A stretch of DNA of 32,000 nt from Patescibacteria group bacterium (lineage in GTDB: Bacteria > Patescibacteriota > UBA1384 > XYA2-FULL-43-10), in NCBI GenBank assembly GCA_041674405.1, contig JBAYVT010000004.1, positions 119,611 through 151,610 on the forward strand. Direction: 5' to 3'. Position numbers and translations under genes: made by a program. The notes under the pieces are model-generated. The model did no database searches. It was not told where the DNA came from and worked only from the letters and a program-made list of their open reading frames with translations. Of this stretch, positions 6,724-32,000 are shown one piece after another (the stretch's first letter is position 1; every line of letters starts with the position of its first letter).

Positions 6724-8010
6724 GTGGATAGTAATGTACTAAAAAATAAGATCCTTCCAGTGATAATTTCATCGCTTTTTTTCTTTATGCCATTCGAGAG
6801 AATTCCCACGATAGAAATCGCCGGCTTTACGGTTAAAATCAGTTATCTGATCGGAGTTGTTTTCATTTTGATTGCAGCTACCGCCGGAATTGGCAAACTT
6901 TTTTTAAGGCACAGGCTTTCGGCCATTGACTGGTCGCTTCTAATTCTCTGGATTTTTGGTGCGCTTAGCCTTGTTAGGGCAGAAAATTTGATGCGCAGCC
7001 TGGCCACAATCATAATGTGGACATTTGTATTTATCATCTTTTTATTATTATCACGGTATCTAAAAAACAAAAAAATTCTTGCGCAAGCTGAAAATTGGTT
7101 ACTTGTCGCAACACTGATCGCTTGTATTTTTGGTATTTATCAATTCGTAGGAGATTCATTGGGCCTCTCGGCAGCATACACCGGGCTTCGCCTCCGTTAT
7201 ACAAAAGAAATATTGGGTTTTCCTCGGATACAATCATTTGCTCTTGAACCATTGTATTTTGCTAATTTCTTATTTGTGCCGTTGTTTATTACAATTCGAA
7301 ATCATATCCAGTCGGGAGAAAAAGTATTTGGAAAATATTTTTGGTTGGCAACACTTATTTTTGTGAATATAATTTTGTCTGTTTCCCGGGGTGCATACTT
7401 TGCCCTCGCGATCACCATGTTATCTGCCTTGCTGATTTTTTGTTTTAGTTGTGGTCGTAAATATTTAAAACGATTTAGCCATATTATAATTGCCGCAGTT
7501 TTTGCCCTCGCAATTTCGATCTCTCTTATCGGCATTTTCGATGGAAAAGAACAAATTCTTAGTTTTAAAAACCACGCTTTTATTGATGATTCCACAAATG
7601 CTGCTTCAGTGGTTGGGAGGCAAAAGGGATATGTTATTGCCTGGAATCAATTTAAGGCAAGCCCTGTTTTTGGCATTGGTATTGGCAACTCCGGCATTCT
7701 TTCAACGCCGGTGGTAGAGCATGGCGAGACATTTACTTACGGCTCTCTCAATAATGAATATTTAGAAATTCTGTCGGAAACGGGAATATTGGGATTTGCC
7801 GCATTTATAGGATTCCTCGTTTTTATGTTAGTGCTTATTTTCCGTAGCATAAAGTCAGCAAATGATGATAATAAAACCGATATTGCGTTGGTCGCTTTAG
7901 GTTGTCTGGCAATTTTTATTCAATATAATTTCTTTTCCACCCTTTACATTATTTATATCTGGGCATTCCTTGCGCTCTTAAGGGCCAAGGCAGAGGAGGC
8001 TATGGCATGA
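6724..8010 (+). CDS. O-antigen ligase/polymerase-like (Wzy_C family) membrane protein, paralogue 1
   Basis: 428-aa polytopic ORF with a GTG start. It has a large loop followed by the SRGAYFAL and ..NSGILS..SLNNEYLEILSETGILGF segments characteristic of the Wzy_C/O-antigen ligase family. Confidence 0.65.
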   Translation: MDSNVLKNKILPVIISSLFFFMPFERIPTIEIAGFTVKISYLIGVVFILIAATAGIGKLFLRHRLSAIDWSLLILWIFGALSLVRAENLMRSLATIIMWTFVFIIFLLLSRYLKNKKILAQAENWLLVATLIACIFGIYQFVGDSLGLSAAYTGLRLRYTKEILGFPRIQSFALEPLYFANFLFVPLFITIRNHIQSGEKVFGKYFWLATLIFVNIILSVSRGAYFALAITMLSALLIFCFSCGRKYLKRFSHIIIAAVFALAISISLIGIFDGKEQILSFKNHAFIDDSTNAASVVGRQKGYVIAWNQFKASPVFGIGIGNSGILSTPVVEHGETFTYGSLNNEYLEILSETGILGFAAFIGFLVFMLVLIFRSIKSANDDNKTDIALVALGCLAIFIQYNFFSTLYIIYIWAFLALLRAKAEEAMA

Positions 8011-9218
8011 ATTATTTGATCTATCTTAATGTTCTCTTGATCCCATCCTACATATTCCGGTTCGAATTATGCGGCATTCCAACCAATGTTTTTGAGATTG
8101 CTGTTGCTATAACTTTTATTGCGTTTCTCGCAGTTCAAATTGCCAAGAAGAAAAAAATAAAAATCAACAATGTCGATTGGGCGATCATATTTTTCCTGTT
8201 TTTTGCCTTTTTGGCAATTCTGATTTCACCTGACAAAAGGGCAGCGTTAGGGATTTTTAAAAGCTGGTTTATAGCTCCATCATTACTATATTTTATTACG
8301 AAGGAAACTATAGCCAAAAAAGACGCTTATAAACTTGCAATTCCGGTTTTCATTTCACTTATGCTAGTGACAGCTTGGGCGATTTTGCAAAAACTTGGTA
8401 TCATTTCAACTCTTTTCTATCAGGTAAACGATCTTACCTTCAATCAATATCTTCATGGCAATGTTCGTCTCTTTGGCCCGTTTGGTTCACCAAATTATCT
8501 GGCCATGTTCATTGTGCCGTCATTTTTTCTTTCGTTAGCACTTTTTTCGAAAATAAAGAATGTAGCTCTGAAAATTCTTTTTTTACTGCTTGAGGTTGCA
8601 CCACTAGTAGTCCTATACTACACGAAATCCCGCGGTGGGGTTCTCGCTTTGGGATTTGGAATGGTAATCTATGTTCTCGTTTATTCGTTGCACAAATTCA
8701 ATATTTACAAATCGTTGAATCTAAGAGCGATCATTACTTCGATCATGGCGGTCCTAACTTTTCTTGTATATGCCTTTGGGTTTTATTCTCCAAATGATCA
8801 TGCCAGGCGCGAAATATACCGATATGCTTGGCAAATGATTAAATCCCATCCGGTAACCGGTATTGGCCTCGATAATTTCCAGGGTGAGATTCTTAAACTC
8901 TCGGCTGGGAATATAAGCTTTCAACAAAATATTTTGTCCTATGCTCTGCACCCACACAATCTTTTTCTAGCGATGTGGCTTTATGTCGGTCTCGGCGGGT
9001 TGATCGCTTTTCTCATTCTCATTTTGCAATTTTTTGGCCGGGCATTTCATTCTTTGCATGATAAAATGGCTATCTTTCCGATTGCAGCGATGACTGCCAT
9101 GCTTGCCCACGGGTTGGTCGACACGACATTTTTCAAGAATGACCTATCAGCATTATTTTTTATCACCCTCGCCTTTGTAATTATTATCAACCAAAATGCC
9201 GAAAAAAATCCTCGATAA
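8007..9218 (+). CDS. O-antigen ligase/polymerase-like membrane protein, paralogue 2
   Basis: 403-aa polytopic ORF. ATGA overlap with paralogue 1. Contains YYTKSRGGVLAL, HPVTGIGLDNF and HPHNLFLAMWLYVGLGG, which are Wzy_C-like blocks. Confidence 0.7.
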   Translation: MNYLIYLNVLLIPSYIFRFELCGIPTNVFEIAVAITFIAFLAVQIAKKKKIKINNVDWAIIFFLFFAFLAILISPDKRAALGIFKSWFIAPSLLYFITKETIAKKDAYKLAIPVFISLMLVTAWAILQKLGIISTLFYQVNDLTFNQYLHGNVRLFGPFGSPNYLAMFIVPSFFLSLALFSKIKNVALKILFLLLEVAPLVVLYYTKSRGGVLALGFGMVIYVLVYSLHKFNIYKSLNLRAIITSIMAVLTFLVYAFGFYSPNDHARREIYRYAWQMIKSHPVTGIGLDNFQGEILKLSAGNISFQQNILSYALHPHNLFLAMWLYVGLGGLIAFLILILQFFGRAFHSLHDKMAIFPIAAMTAMLAHGLVDTTFFKNDLSALFFITLAFVIIINQNAEKNPR

Positions 9219-10440
9219 AATCACTTACTATTTTGCCCTTATCGTAATTGTCTTTATTCCATTTCAGACCCCGATTCAAAATTTTCTTGAAAAGAGGCTT
9301 TCTCCAAGCCTGTCTTTTTGGCTAACACATTTTTATGAGCCAGTAATTATTTTCCTGCTAATTTTTGCCATCATATCAAATGTCGCCAGGAAAGATTTCT
9401 CAAACTGGAAAGCCAAAATTCCGCCTATTCTTTTGGTTTTTTTAGGGCTTGCATCAGTTTTTTTTATTGCAACTGGTTTTAGCCGTGGCCTGCAGGGATT
9501 TCGGTTTGATTTTATCGGGGTCCTGTTTTTTCTCATATGTTCAGTTGCATTGATGCAAAAAGCAGAGAAAAAAACGTTAATTTCAGCCTATATATTCGTT
9601 GCTCTCATAGCTTCCGTCTGGGCAATCATTGAGCGGTTTCTTCCCTTAAACTACTGGCAGTTGCTTGGGGTGCCAAGCTTTGGCTGGGGGACATTTACCG
9701 TCGTTTCTGTCTATCAAAGCTCGGCTTTCCTACCTGGACCAAATCAGCTTGGAAGCTACTTATTGCCTGCAGTTTTCTTGCTTATCTTAAACAAGCCGGA
9801 ATTTTTCAAAGAGGGGATTTTGTCAAAAATCACAAGAGCCGTTGGATCAATCTTGCTCATATCGGCGATTGTTCTTACATTCTCAAGGGCTGCTCTTGTC
9901 GGATTAATTCTTGGGGTGGTTGCTTATATTATATTTATTGAAAAAAGCAGAAAAAGGCAGGCCTTATATGCAGTAATTCTGCTTGCGGTAGTGGCAATTA
10001 TGGCTAGTTATTATCTTTCAGGAGGCAGAGAAGCCAGAGATCTCTTTACCCACGGGAGTTCCCAAGCAGAGCATGAGACTGCGCTTTCGTCTTCACTTAC
10101 TGAAATAGGCCGCCGATTTTCCGAACCTTTCAAATTGACATTTGGTTCGGGAATCGGAGATGCTGGGCCTGCGGCTTTAAAGTATGCTGATGGTTTTATC
10201 TCTGAGTCTTGGTATATCCAGCTTCTTCTCGAGCTTGGAATCATCGGCCTCGCCTTGTGGCTATATTTCATTTTTGTTACACTGATCAGGCTTTATCGCG
10301 ACAAGAATGCAGGATTGTTTTTAGGCTTAATATCAGTTTCTGGCGTGGCAATTTTTCTTCACACCTGGGCTGACAATCCGGCAGTAGCGATTACGATTTT
10401 TATTTTAATCGGGAGTTATCTATATGAGAATTCTAATTGA
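9196..10440 (+). CDS. O-antigen ligase/polymerase-like membrane protein, paralogue 3
   Basis: 414-aa polytopic ORF. Contains TFSRAALVGLILG and ..ESWYIQLLLELGIIGL... Overlaps paralogue 2 by 23 nt. Confidence 0.65.
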   Translation: MPKKILDKITYYFALIVIVFIPFQTPIQNFLEKRLSPSLSFWLTHFYEPVIIFLLIFAIISNVARKDFSNWKAKIPPILLVFLGLASVFFIATGFSRGLQGFRFDFIGVLFFLICSVALMQKAEKKTLISAYIFVALIASVWAIIERFLPLNYWQLLGVPSFGWGTFTVVSVYQSSAFLPGPNQLGSYLLPAVFLLILNKPEFFKEGILSKITRAVGSILLISAIVLTFSRAALVGLILGVVAYIIFIEKSRKRQALYAVILLAVVAIMASYYLSGGREARDLFTHGSSQAEHETALSSSLTEIGRRFSEPFKLTFGSGIGDAGPAALKYADGFISESWYIQLLLELGIIGLALWLYFIFVTLIRLYRDKNAGLFLGLISVSGVAIFLHTWADNPAVAITIFILIGSYLYENSN

Positions 10441-11557
10441 TGGGCGCTTTATTGGCGTGGGCGAATCTATCTCCCGCTACACGCTTGAAATAGTTCAAGG
10501 CATCTTAAAATTGGATCAAGAGCACGAATACACTCTCTTAATCCGCCCGCAAGGCGAAAAGTTTATAGCTGACAACTTACAGCTGAAAGCTAAAAATTTT
10601 CGTACAAAAGTTTTAGATATTCCTCACTACAGCTTCAAAGAGCAAACAGAGCTTCTCAAATATTTAAATTCTGAAAAATTTGATCTTGTGCACTTTACCC
10701 AATTTAACCATCCGATTCGTTACAAAGGAAATTATGTGATCTCGGTGCATGACCTAACCCTTCTTGGGCATCTGCATCGCATGAATATTGTAAAAAGGCT
10801 GGGGTTTCGGGCTGTTATGAAGTCGGCAATAATGGATTCAAGAAAAATTATTACAATTTCGAACACAACCAAGGACGATCTTGTTGAAACATATAGGATT
10901 GATCCGGACAAAATTGCTATTACATACCTCGGCGTTGACAACAAGTATAATTCAAATTTCAAATCTCAATCCGCCAGCTGGCGGACAAAAATTAGGGATT
11001 TTAAAGAAAAGTATAAGACGGGAGAGAAATACATTCTCTATACAGGAATGTGGAAGCGGCACAAGAATCTTCTGCGTATGTTCGATGCTTTCGAGCGAGC
11101 GAAACTTTCTGATGTAAAGCTTGTGCTGGTCGGCAAAATTGATAAAGAAGAGCCGGAAATCTTGAAACGAATTGATGAAATCAATTCCAAGCAAAAAATT
11201 ATTGTAACGACCGGATTTGTTGAGGAGGAGGAACTTCCCATTGCTTATGCTGGGGCAGTAGCTTATTGCATTCCCTCGCTCTCCGAGGGGTTCGGCCTTC
11301 CACCACTCGAGGCAATGGCTTGTGGTACGCCTGTAATTTCTTCAGCAGTATCGGCGATGCCGGAAATTCTCGGCAAGGCGGCGTTCTACTTCGACCCGTA
11401 CGATATTGAAGATATGTCGATGGCGATGAAAACAATCGTCGAAGATGAAAAATTGCAAAAAGAACTATCGCAAAAGGGGTTGAAGTGGGTAGCGCGCTAC
11501 GATTGGGAGAAGACCGCAAAAGAAACTCTGGATGTGTACAAAAGTTTATTGAAATAA
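10424..11557 (+). CDS. Family-4 (GT-B, Glycos_transf_1) glycosyltransferase
   Basis: Starts MRILIDGR. The C-terminal [18 protein letters not shown] motif (E-x7-E type) is diagnostic of GT4. GGGAG lies 9-13 nt upstream of the ATG. Confidence 0.85.
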
Positions 11558-11566
11558 TTGTTCTCA

Positions 11567-11606
11567 TAAACGCGAAAACGCCGCAGATCGTACTGATCCG
11601 CGGCGT
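11567..11606 (-). terminator. Intrinsic terminator of the block-A operon
   Basis: Minus strand reads ACGCCGCGGATCagtacGATCTGCGGCGT (11578-11606) followed by TTTTCGCGTTTA, that is, a GC stem plus a U-rich tail. It lies 27 nt after the lipoprotein stop. Confidence 0.7.
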
Positions 11607-11632
11607 CCTCGGTGATACCCTCCATGGCGTGT

Positions 11633-12367
11633 CTACTTCTTGGGGCTTGTCCTCGCCAAGTCCGCGTTGTAGACCCGTTCGATGGCTTGGCTGTCCGCTT
11701 CGCCGTCTCGGATGTTGATTTCCTTCGGCCAGGGCTTTATCTTCCAGTGATTGCCCTGGTAGCCGTCGGAGATGGCCAGCCAAAGGTGCTCGCCCTGGCG
11801 AATGCCCATCGGGTAGTTGGGTCCAGCCAGCGCCAGGTCCTCCCATACAGCATCCGAGAGCTTCTGCTCGACTTCCAGCTTGATGCCGTCGAGAGTTCCC
11901 GAACCGATGACCAGACTTTGCTGCCTCCCGAGATGATGTAGCACAACGGTGACTTGGCCTTCTGGATTGTTGGGGGGCGGCAGCGGAGTGCCGGGCGCTA
12001 CCCCGGGGACCGCCGTGTTGCTGACCGGAGTGATGGTGATTTCGGTGTACTGCACGCCATCACTCGAGGTGGTGCCCACGGGGTAAATCTTGACCGAAGG
12101 CACATTCCAGATCTCCATGAGCCCCTGCATCACAGGGCCAAGGTTCGTCCAGTTCGGGTCTCTGGTGGCGAATAGCGCCATTCCTTCGTTGTAGTCAAGG
12201 AGACCGCTTGCCCCGTGATGCGTGACGTCGTTCAGGTTCTCGATCTTGTGCAAGGACGATGCCGACATCGCTGTGGTAGACGCGGTGTTGCTGCCGGTAT
12301 TGGTGCAGCCGGCAATCAACAACGCTAGCAGCAGAATCACGAGCAAAGACAACGGAACGTTTCTCAC
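11633..12367 (-). CDS. Lipoprotein of unknown function (paralogue of the 12525-13322 product)
   Basis: GGGAGGG, then ATTCTT, then GTG at 12367. The N-terminus (M)RNVPLSLLVILLLALLIAGC is a signal peptide plus lipobox (L-I-A-G-C). The GC-rich third codon positions agree with this frame. Confidence 0.75.
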   Translation of the reverse strand: MRNVPLSLLVILLLALLIAGCTNTGSNTASTTAMSASSLHKIENLNDVTHHGASGLLDYNEGMALFATRDPNWTNLGPVMQGLMEIWNVPSVKIYPVGTTSSDGVQYTEITITPVSNTAVPGVAPGTPLPPPNNPEGQVTVVLHHLGRQQSLVIGSGTLDGIKLEVEQKLSDAVWEDLALAGPNYPMGIRQGEHLWLAISDGYQGNHWKIKPWPKEINIRDGEADSQAIERVYNADLARTSPKK

Positions 12368-12524
12368 AAGAATCCCTCCCAAAGTTTCAGCCCCGCCTTG
12401 GAGGCGGGCTGTATGGCTGCGGAATCAGAATATCCGAGCGGGCTGCCCCGCACCACATGAGTGGGGGACGGCACCGCTTGGTGCTAGCCTCAATGAGACT
12501 AACCAAGCACAAGTTGTAGGGTTC

Positions 12525-13322
12525 CTAGTCCGGCTGGCCCTTGGGGTCGTACCGCGGCGTCGACGGGGGTTGTGCCGCGAACTGGACCTCGGCGTGCTCA
12601 GTTGCGAGCTTGTTGCCTTTGGTATCCAGATTCGACCAGGTGATCTTGGCGTAGACCGCCTTGACACCCCAGTACGCCTTGAGGTCTCTGACGGCATCCC
12701 CGAAACCCGCAAGCTGGGGATCCTGGGAGACCCAGTCAGCAAAGCGCGTACTGAGCGTCTTGCCGTCTACGAAGCTGAATCCGCCCTGGGACAAGCTCTT
12801 GTCTGCGATCAGCGCTTGCCGATCATGGGTTGCGAGCTTGGATTCCAGGTTGGACTCGGCCACTGATGCCAGAAAGGCCCTCTCGATAGCCTCGGGGTAC
12901 GTCTCGGTCAGGCCGACCTTGACCTTCTCTGGCCACGAGCAGAGGTTCCAGGTGGGATCGCCCATCCGCCAGACGGAAACCTCGGCGAACCAGAACTGGT
13001 CACCCCTAACGATCCCAAGACCCGAGTACGCCCAGTGTTCCATGTCCTTGTTGACCTTCGCCAAGATCGACTTGTCGCCGATCGTGAGCGAAAGGCCGTC
13101 CAGCGTGGCCGGGGAATTCATGGTTTCCCTGGTGCCAAACTTGTACAGCACCAGAGTCACCGGACCATCGGGGTTGTCAGCCGGCCGAGTGCTTGCCGGC
13201 ATCTCGGGGACGACCTTGAGGGTCACTTCGGGAGCCTCAGCCTTTTCGGTCGTGCAGCCGGGCATCCAGACTACCATCATGACAGCGATCGCGGTCATGA
13301 TGAACTTCAGAATATGCTTCAC
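12525..13322 (-). CDS. Lipoprotein of unknown function (paralogue of the 11633-12367 product)
   Basis: GGAGGG, then ATTCCC, then GTG at 13322. The N-terminus (M)KHILKFIMTAIAVMMVVWMPGC is a signal peptide plus a lipobox-like M-P-G-C. It shares the block VT-VL..G..TLDG..L....GI..G..W.A.S...WP.......AIER with the downstream lipoprotein. Confidence 0.7.
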   Translation of the reverse strand: MKHILKFIMTAIAVMMVVWMPGCTTEKAEAPEVTLKVVPEMPASTRPADNPDGPVTLVLYKFGTRETMNSPATLDGLSLTIGDKSILAKVNKDMEHWAYSGLGIVRGDQFWFAEVSVWRMGDPTWNLCSWPEKVKVGLTETYPEAIERAFLASVAESNLESKLATHDRQALIADKSLSQGGFSFVDGKTLSTRFADWVSQDPQLAGFGDAVRDLKAYWGVKAVYAKITWSNLDTKGNKLATEHAEVQFAAQPPSTPRYDPKGQPD

Positions 13323-13463
13323 GGGAATCCCTCCATGGTAGTCAGTCACGCTTGGGGGCGTGCTGTTGTTGTCGGATAGCAATCTCCGAGCGGGATGGCG
13401 CCAATCGCGAAGATTGAAGCGCCGACTCCGCTTGGGCCGACCAAAGTCGGTTTGGGCTCAATT

Positions 13464-13568
13464 CTACTTGTGGCTAAGCATCATGTGGCAAATCGCTCCG
13501 ATGAAGAGGAGTAGGCCACCGGTGCCAGCAACCAGCAGGTCATTTATTACATGCATTACTGCGTCCAT
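13464..13568 (-). CDS. 34-aa hydrophobic small membrane peptide
   Basis: Not in the ORF track because it is too short. AGGAGGAG lies 7 nt upstream of the ATG at 13568. Translation is MDAVMHVINDLLVAGTGGLLLFIGAICHMMLSHK with stop TAG at 13464-13466, which gives one predicted TM helix. Confidence 0.55.
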   Translation of the reverse strand: MDAVMHVINDLLVAGTGGLLLFIGAICHMMLSHK

Positions 13569-13672
13569 GTGTGTGCTCCTCCTGTACTGTAATCATTCGA
13601 GCAGTCTCGCTCGGCACCCTTGTGGGATGCTGAGCGGGAACTGCGCAAGTGAATGCGCGTGATGGCCAAGGG

Positions 13673-14086
13673 CTAGCCCCAGCCGTCCAAAACCGGGAAA
13701 GTGTAGGTCGCGATGACCTTGCCATCCTTGTGTGCGATGGCAGTGCACATGCCAGGCGCCTGGAAGACCCAGTTCTTGCCTGTTGGGAGGATGATGGCCC
13801 CCTTGCCATCCGTCCCCTCGGTGACCGTGATCTGCGCATCGACGCCCCCCTGGGGGCTCGGCGTGCCGATCTCCCTTGAGGCGACTACGTAGAAGTCGGT
13901 AGGGACTGTGATGGCCGTCTCGGTCGCCGGGCGCCAGACGTGATCTGTGGAGGCCCAGATCTGCATCTGGATGTGATACTGGGGAGCTGTCGGCATGGGG
14001 CTGCCGCCACCGGCGCAGCCGGCGAGCACGACAGTCAGGAGTACGGCAATCACGAACCAGCAAAACGACGAAATCTGCTTCAACAT
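13673..14086 (-). CDS. Small lipoprotein of unknown function
   Basis: GGGAGGG, then TTTCAA, then ATG at 14086. The N-terminus MLKQISSFCWFVIAVLLTVVLAGCAGGG is a signal peptide plus a classical L-A-G-C lipobox. The track ORF start at 14167 is an upstream over-extension. Confidence 0.75.
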   Translation of the reverse strand: MLKQISSFCWFVIAVLLTVVLAGCAGGGSPMPTAPQYHIQMQIWASTDHVWRPATETAITVPTDFYVVASREIGTPSPQGGVDAQITVTEGTDGKGAIILPTGKNWVFQAPGMCTAIAHKDGKVIATYTFPVLDGWG

Positions 14087-14157
14087 TTGAAACCCTCCCG
14101 GGGTAGTGGTATGGCGCGCGCAAGCGCAGCGCCTATTGTTACTCAAGGTAACCGAAC

Positions 14158-14186
14158 AATATAACATAAAATATAAGAAATGTCAA
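14158..14186 (-). promoter_or_regulatory. Sigma-70-type promoter facing the block-A operon
   Basis: Minus strand reads TTGACA (14186-14181), a 17-nt spacer, then TATATT (14163-14158). It lies in AT-rich sequence just outside the GC-rich block, about 65 nt upstream of the first lipoprotein ATG. Confidence 0.6.
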
Positions 14187-14249: not shown

Positions 14250-15953
14250 ATGAACATGATCCTCGTTTTTGCGCCAATAGCGGCAGCTTTGATCTCGGTA
14301 CTATTCGGGCTTGTCACGCTTATCCGTGCAGGCAACTCTCATGTTAGTAACAAAAAAATCCTCGATGCCGGAAAAGATGTCGAAAAAAAGGTTCGCTCCT
14401 ATATCAGCCGTGAATTTAATGTACTTGCGGTTTCGGTGGTGATTTTATTCGTAATATTGCTCTATTTGCTCGGTTGGAAGATCAGCCTTACTTTTCTCGC
14501 AGGTGCCGTCATCACGATTGCGGTCAATCTTACAAATTCAATTCTATTTGCACGGGCTTATTCACGCATTGTTGAGGATACGCGCTCAAACCAAATCAAC
14601 GCTGCAAATATTATATTTACTCTTTCCGGAGCTTCGTCTTTGTTTGCATTCGGAGCGGCTCTTGTTGCAAGTGTTATAACTTATGTATTATCTGGAGACT
14701 TTGTTTTTCTGCTTTCACTCACTTTGGGCGCGATTTTGGTTGAAATTATCTCAAAACTGCGATTTCACGGGATTTCAGATAAAAACACCGAAAAAATCGA
14801 GATAAATGAGAACGATCACACCTCCGGAGGACTTATCGGCGCGGTTGCCGGAGTATCCGCGGCAGGCGTTTATTTTATCTCAAACTTATATTCAGGAACT
14901 GAAAACTCGGTGTATTTATCTTTCCTTATTCTGGGGTTGGGGGCCATTGCAATGCTAATAGGCGTACTTATCACAAGATTCCGAACCGACATGAAGCTGG
15001 GCCGGCTTATGCTCACATTCCTTATAATTCCCTCGGTGTTGATTCTGGTAGGATCATATTTTGCTGTATCTTGGTTGATTTATGGAGAAGGCTTACATGC
15101 CACGATCAATCTATCGGTTTCTGCACTCGCTGGCCTGATCGCAGCATTCATGCTGTATATATCCGGCTATTTCATCTCTCAAAAATATCGCCTTCACGGC
15201 GAAAATTATATCCTAATTTCAAATGTAATCTCGATTGTTCTCGCCATCGCTGCAATTTTGGGCATCTATACCCTAAATGGATATGCTGGAGTTTCAGTAT
15301 TCGCGCTGGCCCTGTCAGCTTTTCTTATCCCAATGATGTCGCAATCACGTATGCTTTCAACAAGTAGTAATGCCGAGTTTGTAAGAGCCATTTCTGGCAT
15401 TGAAATGGAGACAGACAAGATCAAGGGTGCGTATGACTCAACAAATGTCTTTCGCAGAAGTTTGGCAGACTACCCGTTTTATCTAGCTATCATTGTAAAT
15501 TTACTCCTCTTTTGGGTGTTTATTGGTAGAATGGGGAGCAGTATGCTTTCCGCAAATTTATCCGATCCTTACCTTATTGCCGGAATCGTCCTCGGGGGAT
15601 TGGCTGCATATGTACTTGCTATGAATCTATCTGGTTGGGTAAAACAGGGAATAATCGTGCCGATCGCTATCCTTTTAGCCCTTCCGGCTCTATCTGGACT
15701 ACTTTTGGGTGCCAGCATGTCATTCGGGGCAGTGATTGGCTATGTTGTCGTAGCGTTGATTTTGGCGGCGATCAATGATCGGGTCTCGATCAGTGTGAGT
15801 TCCATCGGGTTGATTCTGGGTGCGACATTATTTTCATCGCTAATTAAAATGGCTCCAAGTTTGCGTTTGAAACTCATAATCGGAATTGCTCTAGTCGTAT
15901 TGATCCTGGTCTATGTTGTAATGTCTCGAATGACAAAAAAGGAAGCTAAATGA
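14250..15953 (+). CDS. Polytopic membrane protein related to membrane-bound pyrophosphatases (M-PPase/HppA family) but apparently lacking the catalytic acidic motifs
   Basis: AGGAG lies 6 nt upstream of the ATG. The 567-aa product has about 14-16 hydrophobic segments. From memory of Thermotoga M-PPase, several blocks align: GWKISLTFLAGAVITIA..FARAYSRIVEDTR vs TWQTGVAFLLGAVMSA..ATRANVRVAEAAR; GVSVFALALSAF..ISGIEM vs GVAIAALGMLSF..GGISEM; and PALSGLLLGASMSFGAVIGYVV vs PLVTGFLLGAEFVGGVLIGTVL. I cannot find the GGG-x-x-TKAADVGADLVGK, DNVGDNVGD, DSYGPIADNAGG or GDTVGDP motifs. Confidence 0.5.
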   Translation: MNMILVFAPIAAALISVLFGLVTLIRAGNSHVSNKKILDAGKDVEKKVRSYISREFNVLAVSVVILFVILLYLLGWKISLTFLAGAVITIAVNLTNSILFARAYSRIVEDTRSNQINAANIIFTLSGASSLFAFGAALVASVITYVLSGDFVFLLSLTLGAILVEIISKLRFHGISDKNTEKIEINENDHTSGGLIGAVAGVSAAGVYFISNLYSGTENSVYLSFLILGLGAIAMLIGVLITRFRTDMKLGRLMLTFLIIPSVLILVGSYFAVSWLIYGEGLHATINLSVSALAGLIAAFMLYISGYFISQKYRLHGENYILISNVISIVLAIAAILGIYTLNGYAGVSVFALALSAFLIPMMSQSRMLSTSSNAEFVRAISGIEMETDKIKGAYDSTNVFRRSLADYPFYLAIIVNLLLFWVFIGRMGSSMLSANLSDPYLIAGIVLGGLAAYVLAMNLSGWVKQGIIVPIAILLALPALSGLLLGASMSFGAVIGYVVVALILAAINDRVSISVSSIGLILGATLFSSLIKMAPSLRLKLIIGIALVVLILVYVVMSRMTKKEAK

Positions 15954-18261: not shown

Positions 18262-18279
18262 ACTATATTTGTGCTCTAA

Positions 18280-18807
18280 GACGCAATTTCGGCCCAGGTG
18301 AACACACCGGGCCGAAAGGTTAACCATGCCCGAAACGGGCAGGAGAGATTGGGGGTTACCCGGGAACTCTGCTCGGCAACCGTCACCGACACCATCACCG
18401 ACAACTGGCAACGACACCGAACTCTGAGCAGTAATAGTACAGCGCTCATCAACCACAGAACCATCCGTGGTCGGGGAACGACTCTGACGCCGTGCGCGCT
18501 GACATCGGGTAACCGAAACTGGAATATCTTGACCCCGCCACTCGGCGGAGATTGGCTACGAAAGCCTGGTCGATCGAGGCATCGGTTTCACCCTTCCGGC
18601 GGAAAGCTGAACAAGCGATGCATAGCGCTATCTCCAGGCAGTCGACAGGGGAGCCACCTCCCAGCAAACAGCATACACATGCTACGCGTTTTGCGTTTGT
18701 GGTGGCGCTACGTGGGGAGAATCTCACAGCTAACATACGTACTAGCTGATCGAAACCCCTATAGGCAGTGGTTGCACCCATTTTCCATGCATGCTGCGCC
18801 TCTCTGT
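18280..18807 (-). ncRNA. Candidate large (about 530 nt) structured non-coding RNA of unrecognised class (GC-rich block B)
   Basis: GC-rich stretch between convergent and divergent CDSs. The only ORFs (179 aa plus strand, 124 aa and 115 aa minus strand) have R/C/H-rich, non-protein-like translations and no SD. It contains many local hairpins. At least two helices need G-U pairs that exist only on the minus strand: CGACCAC/GTGGTTG near 18453-18473 and CTCCGCC/GGCGGGG near 18534-18551. It is bracketed by a promoter-like site and a 9-bp GC hairpin. Confidence 0.5.
18287..18317 (-). terminator. GC-rich hairpin at the 3' end of the candidate ncRNA (could also serve the convergent VanW gene)
   Basis: TTTCGGCCC-GGTGtgttCACCt-GGGCCGAAA gives 9 + 4 bp. 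On the minus strand it is followed by TTGCGTCTT, a weak U tract. The flanks are symmetric (T-run and A-run). Confidence 0.5.
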
Positions 18808-18813
18808 ATCTGT

Positions 18814-18842
18814 AAACTATCAAACACAGCTTCCTAAGTCAA
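18814..18842 (-). promoter_or_regulatory. Putative promoter of the candidate ncRNA
   Basis: Minus strand reads TTGACT (18842-18837), a 17-nt spacer, then TAGTTT (18819-18814). The -10 is weak. Confidence 0.35.
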
Positions 18843-18961
18843 GTTTGTGTTGGATGAAAGAAAGTAATCCGTAGTCTGTGACCTGTGAAGTAAAAGAATT
18901 TTTTAAGGACTACGAAGACAGACTACAGACTAATAATTTTAGCTATGCTAAAATAAAATTG

Positions 18962-31247: not shown

Positions 31248-32000
31248 CTAAGCGCTGAGTAATGCTACTATGTCCAGTTCGTCGGTGTCGACGAAGATCT
31301 CTGCCTCGCTGACTTCGGAGGGTTCGGGGACGAAACCAAGCTTGTCGCCAAGCTCGGCGTAATACTTCATGTCAGCCAGCCTGACTTTGGCTCCTCTTGA
31401 GGCGTGTTCGGCAGCGCCCTCGAGGTCGTACGCATCCATAATGGTCTCCACCACGCAGGCAGGAACCCTAGGATTACCATCTTCGTCGTACCCGAAATGC
31501 CAGTTGACTCCACTCTTGATCTGCTCCCCCTCTTTGTGCGGTAGCTTCACCGGGCCGCAGCACACGAGTCTGAAGTCCATTTCGGGATGTTCCTTGAGAA
31601 TCCTGCGGTCGAAGTTGGCCGGGGTAGCCGTATCGATGAATACGGTGCCAGGCTTGTAGTTCAGGCAGTTCTCAAGGGTGATGATGGGCTTGTCGGAGTT
31701 GGTGACGAGTATGACGATGTCGGCATCGAACCCGTCTCGGGGATCGGTAGAGATGCGGGTGGTTTTGGCAAAACCACGTAGCTTCTCTTCGTTGCGGCCT
31801 ATGGCAGTCACCTGCGCGCAGACCGATTCCAGGTAGGTCGTTGTGATCCGGCCGATAAAGCCGGAGGCGCCATAAATGGCAGCCTTAGCCATGTTCAGAG
31901 GCACCCTGGTTTTTTGCCCGGCGGCGCGTACTGTAGTGACAGAGGTGTATGCCGCGCCGTTCTCAATGGTACTGCCCAGGTTGCGTTTGTTGGTCCATGC
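31248..32000 (-). CDS. COG5322-type NAD(P)-binding oxidoreductase (acyl-ACP-reductase-like fold family); the N-terminus runs off the window
   Basis: GC-rich. The reading frame stays open from 32000, reading AWTNKRNLGSTIENGAAYTSVTTVRAAGQ.. ahead of the track start. Rossmann motif AAIYGASGFIGR. The block order resembles cyanobacterial acyl-ACP reductase as I recall it: T-G-N-x-x-TA.. then V-G-A-T/S-G-x-IG, A/GRN-x-E-x-L, DADIV.., ..IDxxxPxN.. and a C-terminal ..AC..E..... segment. Confidence 0.5.
   Translation of the reverse strand, partial: AWTNKRNLGSTIENGAAYTSVTTVRAAGQKTRVPLNMAKAAIYGASGFIGRITTTYLESVCAQVTAIGRNEEKLRGFAKTTRISTDPRDGFDADIVILVTNSDKPIITLENCLNYKPGTVFIDTATPANFDRRILKEHPEMDFRLVCCGPVKLPHKEGEQIKSGVNWHFGYDEDGNPRVPACVVETIMDAYDLEGAAEHASRGAKVRLADMKYYAELGDKLGFVPEPSEVSEAEIFVDTDELDIVALLSA

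Follow-up and report, generated by a model that had tools for sequence, protein, structure and literature searches.

Replacement-type flexible genomic islands for cell-surface components are known from marine bacteria and from Haloquadratum walsbyi (the 'metagenomic islands' and glycotype islands), and they usually comprise tens of kilobases of glycosyltransferase and polysaccharide genes. Variable surface lipoproteins are the products of the Vsp, Vlp and Vsa systems of Mycoplasma and of the Vlp, Vsp and VlsE systems of Borrelia. Phage morons are extra transcription units of deviant GC content with their own promoter and terminator, and several of them encode superinfection-exclusion lipoproteins. 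Here we describe a compact lipoprotein locus in a stretch of 32,000 nucleotides (hereafter the window) of the Patescibacteria contig JBAYVT010000004.1, where a GC-rich block of four minus-strand genes, A to D, lies between the gene for a GT4 glycosyltransferase and that for a membrane protein resembling H+-pyrophosphatase (PPase). The genes are real and foreign in composition, two of them (C and D) are paralogues, and in related loci the same site, together with its promoter, is conserved and either empty or occupied by non-homologous genes of the same class. On balance, the block is probably the current cargo of a variable lipoprotein slot conserved in the lineage, for which we infer a role in strain-specific surface recognition.

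Recognition of partner cells and attachment to them are largely obscure in ultra-small epibiotic bacteria, the known players being type IV pili and a few surface proteins. A fixed site beside surface-glycan genes that combines a strong resident promoter with fast-changing, lineage-specific lipoproteins is the type of locus expected for specificity, or as a target of phages or partner defences. The present locus adds three orphan protein families, one of which includes a motif-bearing domain that has been duplicated, and a small, promoter-equipped, lipoprotein-only flexible site in Patescibacteria. The apparent 'orphan operon' is understood better by its position than by its sequence. Genomic islands and horizontal gene transfer are frequent in Patescibacteria (PMC12455944; bioRxiv 10.64898/2026.09.16.751625).

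A conserved intergenic site with variable lipoprotein cargo

The block, its borders and its promoter are arranged as follows (aa, amino acids; GC3, GC content at third codon positions; SD, Shine-Dalgarno sequence).

10424..11557, plus strand: left border, GT4 glycosyltransferase gene, last gene of a surface-glycan cluster (three Wzy_C genes, glycosyltransferase genes and a flippase gene)
11573-14150, strand not applicable: cargo block, delimited by GC composition and codon usage
11633-12367, minus strand: gene D, 244 aa, GTG start, lipobox ..LIAGC, GC3 0.76
12525-13322, minus strand: gene C, 265 aa, GTG start, lipobox ..WMPGC, GC3 0.80
13464-13568, minus strand: gene B, 34-aa single-pass hydrophobic peptide, AGGAGGAG 7 nt upstream of the ATG, KD19 1.97
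13673-14086, minus strand: gene A, 137 aa, ATG start, lipobox ..VLAGC, GC3 0.82
14158..14186, minus strand: promoter, sigma-70-type TTGACA-17-TATATT with TG extension, 11/12 matches, in AT-rich DNA of host composition
14250..15953, plus strand: right border, divergent, shortened H+-pyrophosphatase-like membrane protein

A total of 37 metagenome loci were retrieved with the GT4 protein (24-64% identity), and synteny was compared in those with a GT4 47-63% identical to that of the window. Searches by tblastn with the window proteins revealed the order Wzy-Wzy-Wzy-GT4-gap-PPase-DUF3006-VanW-(P-type ATPase) in many related loci, and A, B, C and D are absent from all of them. An earlier reading of the DNA letters (the sequence-only reading) had named absence of conserved synteny in other genomes as refuting, and this applies to the gene set A-D, which co-occurs nowhere else, but not to its position, which is conserved in relatives. 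The PPase-like protein as a query had no match in GTDB genomes or JGI metagenomes, because the window copy is too divergent, and PyrG as a query found an 80%-identical relative (L007) with no shared synteny.

The gap between GT4 and PPase is empty in eight loci (L042, L047, L049, L051, L054, L043, L066 and L040), where it measures 63-850 nt and holds no lipoprotein gene. It is occupied by one or two genes in ten others (L039, L045, L048, L052, L055, L057, L058, L059, L061 and L069) and partially in L056; the PPase side was confirmed in the window and in six of these eleven occupied loci (L045, L052, L055, L057, L058 and L069), the contigs of which reach that far. The cargo genes of the related loci are always convergent with GT4, and all but one encode a signal peptide and a lipobox (LVGC, LAGC, ISGC, LTGC, FVGC, VAGC, NAGC, FSGC, VSGC or IAGC). 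When open reading frames (ORFs) of at least 100 aa with a PROSITE-type lipobox were counted over 283 kb, 14 were found in 18.8 kb of slots versus three in 264 kb outside. These three, located in the Wzy region upstream of GT4 and on its strand, are likely to be false positives.

By all-against-all BLASTP and phmmer, no relationship was seen among the cargo proteins other than within a group of close strains (L056, L057 and L061) and in a few weak pairs, and a Pfam search of the related-locus cargo gave nothing above cut-offs. Peptides resembling B are absent from 12 other slots. The site therefore has the hallmarks of a variable slot, namely a fixed position between core genes and a content that is non-homologous but constant in class. 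The eight empty loci display another mark of an island, absence at the equivalent site in relatives. Across the four assemblies of the window's own population no variation between strains was found, and differences were seen only between distant relatives (GT4 47-63% identical).

In most loci the GC3 of the cargo exceeds that of the flanks, as in the following examples.

L039: cargo GC3 0.73, flank GC3 0.38
L045: cargo GC3 0.83, flank GC3 0.59-0.64
L055: cargo GC3 0.62-0.67, flank GC3 0.40-0.43

The window has the largest contrast, and its block is the largest and most GC-skewed cargo among the slots seen.

A single match such as the promoter of the block is by itself not above expectation, shuffled sequences giving 1.6 matches at the 9/12 threshold of the scan; it is credible because it is conserved at the related loci. 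Nine of the eleven occupied loci have it, in the form of TTGACA (TTGACT in L039), a 17-nt spacer ending in TGn, and TAnnnT. The element lies in AT-rich DNA adjoining the PPase gene, and the distance to the first cargo ATG is about 100-130 nt. The loci include L039, L048, L052, L055, L057, L058, L061 and L069, among which L048, L058 and L069 have TAATAT or TAATAC as the -10 element; a strict regular expression was matched by six loci. Three of the empty loci (L042, L054 and L066) likewise have the -35 box together with the sequence before it ('caatattgaca'). Conservation in the occupied loci, along with the -35 box in some empty ones, indicates that the promoter is a property of the chromosomal site and not of the cargo.

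The locus with the closest GT4 (L039, 63% identity) repeats the architecture of the window, with the promoter, a GC-rich hairpin leader, a GC-rich lipoprotein gene and a terminator hairpin set against the GT4 stop codon. The leader and initiation region of gene A resemble those of L039 (CCCYGGGAGGGYTT..ATG), with CCCTGGGAGGGCTTAGAATG in L039 versus CCCCGGGAGGGTTTCAAATG in the window. Gene A and the first cargo gene of L039 are weakly similar, being matched by BLASTP with E = 3e-5 and 23% identity, partly via the signal peptide.

Other inserts were observed at or near the site. Two empty loci, L054 (2184-2661) and L066 (7091-7419), keep the TTGACA promoter, followed by 200-300 nt of GC-richer sequence with hairpins or a terminator and no ORF of at least 70 aa; these stretches may have been left behind by lost cargo or may represent a small RNA. 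Right after GT4, L065 (1832-2220) and L071 (661-1049) contain a short GC-rich patch with a 66-aa zinc-ribbon-like ORF (CxxC...CxxC), and L063 and L064 have an ORF for a HicA-like toxin downstream of GT4. Given these inserts, the 3' flank of GT4 accepts non-lipoprotein cargo too.

Composition and coding content of the block

The cargo block has a GC content of about 0.59 (57-65%), compared to about 0.41 in the flanks, and the composition changes sharply at both edges. In the proposed frames, the GC3 of A, C and D amounts to 0.76-0.82, compared to 0.38-0.45 in neighbouring host genes and 0.43-0.45 in the flanks. Two overlapping alternative ORFs have values of 0.54-0.62, and a third, antisense to C, has 0.78 and uses the same third codon positions as C. 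These values identify A, C and D as real coding frames with foreign codon usage. Synonymous codon usage of the block correlates with that of nine host genes at only r = 0.13, and in both composition and codon usage the block deviates from its host as a horizontally acquired island does. Independent gene callers also predict A, C and D, and B was called in the JGI and Logan assemblies by two pipelines. In the NCBI-labelled Patescibacteria metagenome-assembled genome (MAG), the locus tags WC080_03560 and WC080_03565 are assigned. The window matches, in reverse orientation, the initial 32 kb of an ENA contig of 158 kb. The sequence-only reading had placed four minus-strand genes, including the short peptide B behind a strong SD, between a near-consensus promoter and a GC-hairpin terminator, and had described the operon as GC-rich; the ORFs were found where it put them, and the remaining elements were borne out as well.

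Export signals of A, C and D

The proteins A, C and D each have a Lys or Arg within the first six residues followed by 14-17 hydrophobic residues, as is characteristic of signal peptides, with the maximum KD19 (1.9-2.7) at the N-terminus. Nowhere else in the whole window does an ORF combine a signal peptide with a lipobox. The lipobox rule applied was PROSITE PS51257, {DERK}(6)-[LIVMFWSTAG](2)-[LIVMFYSTAGCQ]-[AGS]-C, which is satisfied by A (AVLLTVVLAGC) and D (ILLLALLIAGC). The prediction of exported, membrane-tethered products agrees with these features, but of the three lipoboxes that had been called unambiguous only those of A and D are canonical, whereas that of C is atypical and fails the rule. 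C is a probable lipoprotein, albeit a non-canonical one as judged from its N-terminus.

Compared to bacterial lipoproteins in general (substrates of Lgt and LspA, described by PS51257), A and D have the same n- and h-regions and lipobox Cys, with a tether rich in Ser, Thr and Pro following the Cys. C differs by Pro at -2 and Trp at -4. In Pfam and NCBIfam, the mature domains are without a match to any lipoprotein family, matches being confined to the signal-peptide level.

Paralogy and domain layout of C and D

Residues ~47-158 of C and ~131-240 of D share a domain of about 110 aa, termed X. In C, the X domain is followed by a C-terminal Y region and a Pro-rich tail, and D consists of an S/T-rich linker, an N-terminal Y' region, a Pro-rich linker and the C-terminal X domain. 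BLASTP aligned C and D with 30% identity over 116 aa (E = 2e-12), and the Smith-Waterman score of 127 compares with a shuffle mean of 26.6 +/- 4.6. The invariant motifs NPxGxVTxVL, TLDG, GIxxGxxxWxA, WP and AIER correspond to the blocks by which the shared domain of about 100 aa had been proposed from the letters alone. The near-identical initiation regions of the two genes (GGAGGGATTCYYGTG) had likewise been taken as a sign of duplication, which gains weight from homology reaching ~90 nt upstream; the duplicated stretch includes the hairpin just upstream of the SD as well as the initiation region. Altogether, the alignments indicate that C and D are paralogues that arose by duplication of one leader-plus-gene unit.

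In addition, the Y region of C (residues ~160-250) and the Y' region of D (residues ~22-130) show a weak similarity (shuffle p ~0.004), in which FADWVSQDP..W.V..V of C is matched to MALFATRDP..W.V..V of D. The orders X-Y in C and Y'-X in D are suggestive of a rearrangement of domains after the duplication, although this is not established. Sequence comparison gave no relationship of A with either C or D.

The X domain may recur in the cargo of a further locus, L053. When all retrieved loci were searched locally with an HMM of X, no match reached significance (best E = 0.21, L053), and hhalign of X against the L053 cargo protein (L053a) gave P = 1.7e-4 with a probability of 50%. The L053 cargo is tethered by a transmembrane anchor and not by a lipobox. 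The hhalign result for L044a was weak.

Leaders and terminator

The noncoding elements of the block are the following.

14087..14150, minus strand: leader of A, GC-rich, with a GCGC-rich hairpin and the SD GGGAGGG
13569..13672, minus strand: A-B spacer, structured leader (z = -3.2), with CCCGCTCAG 70 nt upstream of the B start
13323..13463, minus strand: leader of C, homologous to the D leader, with the CCCGCTCGG motif and two hairpins, a small one and one ~10 nt before the SD
12368..12524, minus strand: leader of D, paralogous to the C leader
13630-13638, 13386-13394 and 12434-12442, minus strand: CCCGCTCRG in the internal leaders of B, C and D
11573..11611, minus strand: terminator-like hairpin with a 17-bp GC-rich stem, ~-30 kcal/mol, z = -4.8

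The terminator-like hairpin is followed by a U-rich tail (UUUUCGCGUUUAU) and lies 16 nt past the stop codon of the convergent GT4 gene. Each of the start codons of B, C and D is preceded, at a distance of 70-75 nt on the sense strand, by the 9-mer CCCGCTCRG. Five matches were counted in the window, two of them outside the leaders of the block, compared to 0.25 expected by chance. The 9-mer may serve for processing or regulation in each of the internal leaders.

Searches for homologues and structures

Searches of A-D against Pfam, NCBIfam, PHROGs and PADLOC gave only matches at the level of signal peptides or below threshold. In a word-indexed search of ~5.8 billion protein clusters, A and C matched only themselves, and nothing scored with the C/D alignment as query. 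When 1.84 billion representatives were searched exhaustively with an HMM of the X domain, only C and D were accepted as matches. PDB sequence searches with A, C, D and the X profile were negative, as were scans for the block in phage collections (DNA and tblastn) and IMG/VR; Rfam gave nothing on the block or the whole window. These results uphold the initial impression that none of the four products belongs to a known family.

The X profile also gave weak matches to long β-propeller repeat proteins, summed over 5-14 short stretches. A β-propeller with arylesterase/lactonase-like blades was rejected for the X domain, as the score is amplified by repeats and C and D each have a single G-I-x-x-G-x-x-x-W-x-A copy.

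By secondary structure prediction, mature A is all-β, and X is mixed β/α and ends in a long helix. AlphaFold2 yielded unusable models, with a pLDDT of 42.3 for A and 45.7 for C, the latter modelled from an alignment that included the X domain of D. The structural comparison that the sequence-only reading had recommended for the lipoproteins, by AlphaFold and Foldseek, therefore produced no confident match (pLDDT 42-46).

Integrity of the assembly and chromosomal context

Three other assemblies reproduce the sequence of the block, which disposes of the concern that it might be an assembly artefact. A JGI contig from landfill (L004; 3300037067, Southern Ontario leachate well) covers 16100-10848 of the window and thus both junctions, with two base differences, both outside the block, and a 10-N scaffold gap. 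This gap, at 2851-2860 of L004 (window ~13250), falls inside gene C and accounts for the 277-aa JGI call of C, which is not a real sequence difference. The Logan contigs L002 and L006 (SRR22315508 and SRR6484325) cover 14224-12266 and 14052-4888 with 100% identity to the window. The block is identical in all four assemblies of the population, without sequence variants.

On the GT4 side, the window encodes three Wzy_C proteins, GT4, GT2 glycosyltransferases, a flippase and an FG-GAP protein. On the other side follow the PPase-like protein, DUF3006, VanW, a P-type ATPase, CTP synthase, GroES/EL, EF-P, SSB and S6. The closest PyrG matches of the host are Saccharibacteria-type MAGs. A search for insertion signatures found no significant direct or inverted repeats flanking the block; no tRNA is present in the window, and the neighbouring genes encode no integrase, transposase or recombinase domains.

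The PPase-like neighbour has 567 aa, of which only the N-terminal ~150 residues match Pfam H_PPase (E = 1.8e-8). Its identity to the PPases of relatives at the equivalent position, which have ~700 aa, is 24-29%, compared to ~50% for VanW and ~65% for DUF3006. From these comparisons, it looks like a strongly diverged or degenerating pyrophosphatase.

Three tandem Wzy_C paralogues (O-antigen-ligase-like) occupy 6724-10440 before GT4, an arrangement that is kept in relatives. Patescibacteria are thought to be without an outer membrane and lipopolysaccharide, and the three enzymes may for this reason act in the ligation of a wall glycopolymer or in the O-glycosylation of surface proteins. As a speculation, candidate substrates of Wzy_C would be the tethers of the slot lipoproteins, which are rich in Ser, Thr and Pro.

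Two further GC-rich stretches were observed in the window. A second block at the contig end (31170-32000, 0.56-0.59 GC), 17 kb from the lipoprotein block, contains a gene for a 214-aa protein (31248-31891, minus strand, GC3 0.70) with a weak NAD-binding/Shikimate_DH match; the gene has a terminator hairpin of its own. In synonymous codon usage it resembles the lipoprotein block (r = 0.89) more than host genes (r = 0.19), and the ENA and JGI assemblies both end 50-110 nt upstream of it. The other stretch is the ~600-nt gap between VanW and the P-type ATPase (18262-18877), with 53-61% GC against a background of ~40%. It has no ORF with coding-like GC3 periodicity, no gene call in the ENA contig and no Rfam match at E <= 1, and its folding z is -2.1 on the plus strand and -3.1 on the minus strand. 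Possible interpretations are a structured RNA not described before and a GC-rich insert in decay.

Interpretation and alternative explanations

We propose that the slot is the intergenic site between GT4, at the end of the surface-glycan cluster, and the PPase-DUF3006-VanW block, where a strong resident promoter with an extended -10 element on the PPase side would read towards GT4. Anything placed between this promoter and the GT4 stop codon would be transcribed. The cargo products would be exported by Sec, modified with diacylglyceryl on the Cys by Lgt and cleaved by LspA, following general lipoprotein biology, and displayed on the outer face of the single membrane of a presumably monoderm cell, as in the Gram-positive-like envelope of Saccharibacteria. 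There, the lipoproteins may act as strain-specific binding or recognition surfaces, either in attachment to the partner cell or in masking against phages or partner defences. Cargo would turn over by recombination through the conserved flanks, from a gene pool outside the sampled diversity. By analogy with surface-related flexible islands and variable lipoprotein systems, the cargo products are probably strain-specific recognition or binding surfaces, with adhesion or surface interaction as their most plausible role.

The alternatives differ mainly in where the cargo came from. The sequence-only reading had seen in the four genes a self-contained module forming one co-functioning system, which does not fit a promoter that belongs to the site and relatives that carry unrelated lipoproteins there, or nothing. 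A one-off recent transfer of such a four-gene envelope system, whose products form one machine, from an unsampled donor of ~60% GC is in our view decidedly unlikely. The GC3 contrast of the window is the most extreme of all loci, the codon usage matches that of the second GC-rich block, the genes are intact with strong SDs and a terminator, and no homologue appeared in the searches, all of which such a transfer would explain. But the promoter is DNA of host composition conserved in relatives, unrelated lipoproteins sit at the equivalent site in 10 other loci, and A-D are never together elsewhere, with B unique to the cargo of the window. Moreover, the leader of A has a similar counterpart in L039, whose GT4 is the closest; C and D arose by local duplication and are not distinct subunits, and there is no integrase, tRNA or flanking repeat. 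The opposite proposal, that nothing was transferred, we regard as unlikely. It holds that an ancestral lipoprotein gene was inherited vertically under diversifying selection, with local duplications and losses, and gained its high GC from a local bias such as GC-biased gene conversion. It accommodates the conserved promoter, a leader, an initiation region and a signal peptide that are in part shared with L039, the orientation and lipobox class that are constant across occupied loci, the duplication of C and D in place and the possible recurrence of X in L053. It is also in keeping with a cargo GC3 at or above that of GT4 in all occupied loci but L057 (0.02 lower), which would be odd for random donors. 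However, the sharply bounded stretch of only 2.6 kb, with a GC3 of 0.8 versus 0.43, does not look ameliorated, the site is cleanly empty in eight relatives, and the mature domains differ in length and predicted class without detectable similarity; the second GC-rich block has the same codon usage 17 kb away in a different context.

It is highly improbable that the block is functionless passenger DNA, recently acquired and made up of neutral ORFans heading for loss. In favour of such DNA, the block has no homologues against which conservation could be measured and is seen in a single population only, and the empty slots of relatives show that cargo is dispensable. On the other hand, four intact ORFs with good SDs are packed into 2.6 kb, leader elements are conserved, and lipoproteins are strongly enriched at the slot across genomes; C and D, at 30% identity, keep invariant motifs and open frames, which points to purifying selection after duplication. 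A chimeric assembly or a contaminant in a Patescibacteria contig, which the sharp composition switch at both edges and the metagenomic origin of the ENA contig might have suggested, is effectively refuted by the syntenic host genes on both sides, by JGI 3300037067, Logan SRR22315508 and Logan SRR6484325, which reproduce the block with one of them spanning both junctions, and by analogous GC-rich lipoprotein inserts at the equivalent site in relatives.

Some observations weigh against a lineage-conserved slot with exchangeable recognition lipoproteins. The related loci come from one pattern-seeded scan and are not a systematic sample, two of the occupied loci (L045 and L059) have no promoter match, and the cargo of L057 and L061 has no GC contrast with the flanks. 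The lipobox of C (VVWMPGC) fails the PROSITE rule, and Foldseek searches of PDB with the A and C models gave nothing at E < 0.1 (TM ~0.2), so that the fold is not assignable. No donor or gene pool was found in protein clusters, representatives or phage collections, the plasmid collection not having been searched. The cargo may change by replacement or by in-place hyper-divergence. Replacement is favoured by the sharp, unameliorated GC3 and the clean empty sites. Some continuity is favoured by the partly conserved leader and signal peptide and by a cargo GC that is never markedly below that of the flanks.

The slot reading can be taken further, although we offer this extension tentatively and hold it to be rather doubtful. 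The GT4/PPase site would then be a dedicated expression slot for swapping surface lipoproteins, serving partner-cell specificity or evasion of recognition by partners or phages in this epibiotic clade, with GC-rich cargo from an unsampled mobile pool and possible decoration of the tethers by the three Wzy_C-type enzymes, which resemble O-antigen ligases or O-oligosaccharyltransferases. If so, the slot cargo would be a genomic marker of host range in uncultured ultra-small bacteria. Quite apart from this extension, the locus yields a simple search rule, GT4 - convergent lipoprotein genes - PPase.

Comparison with known systems

Like phage morons, the block is a compact, lipoprotein-encoding unit of deviant GC that runs from a sigma-70 promoter to an intrinsic terminator. 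It differs in that its flanks are chromosomal housekeeping and glycan genes and its promoter is host DNA. A location in a prophage, or as a moron of a phage, was ruled out, with no PHROG match above the signal-peptide level and no matches in phage collections.

The variable lipoproteins of Mycoplasma and Borrelia resemble those of the slot in that abundant surface lipoproteins are the variable face of a small-genome, host-dependent bacterium. In both cases the promoter is conserved, the leader and signal peptide partly so, and the mature parts are highly variable, with local gene duplication as seen for C and D. In contrast to these systems, the window has no silent cassettes, invertible promoter, site-specific recombinase, homopolymeric tract or tandem repeats; a search for a switching apparatus found only short chance matches among repeat families, no inverted repeats flanking the promoter and no recombinase. 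As the variation was seen only between lineages, the slot is not a phase- or antigenic-variation switch.

Compared to replacement-type flexible islands, the slot is much smaller (0-2.7 kb), contains only small exported lipoproteins behind one resident promoter, and varies between genera or families of Patescibacteria instead of between strains of one species. Nevertheless, it is likewise fixed between core genes, adjoins a glycan-synthesis cluster, is free of integrase, tRNA and flanking repeats, and holds a content of deviant composition that is non-homologous yet constant in its class, the cell surface.

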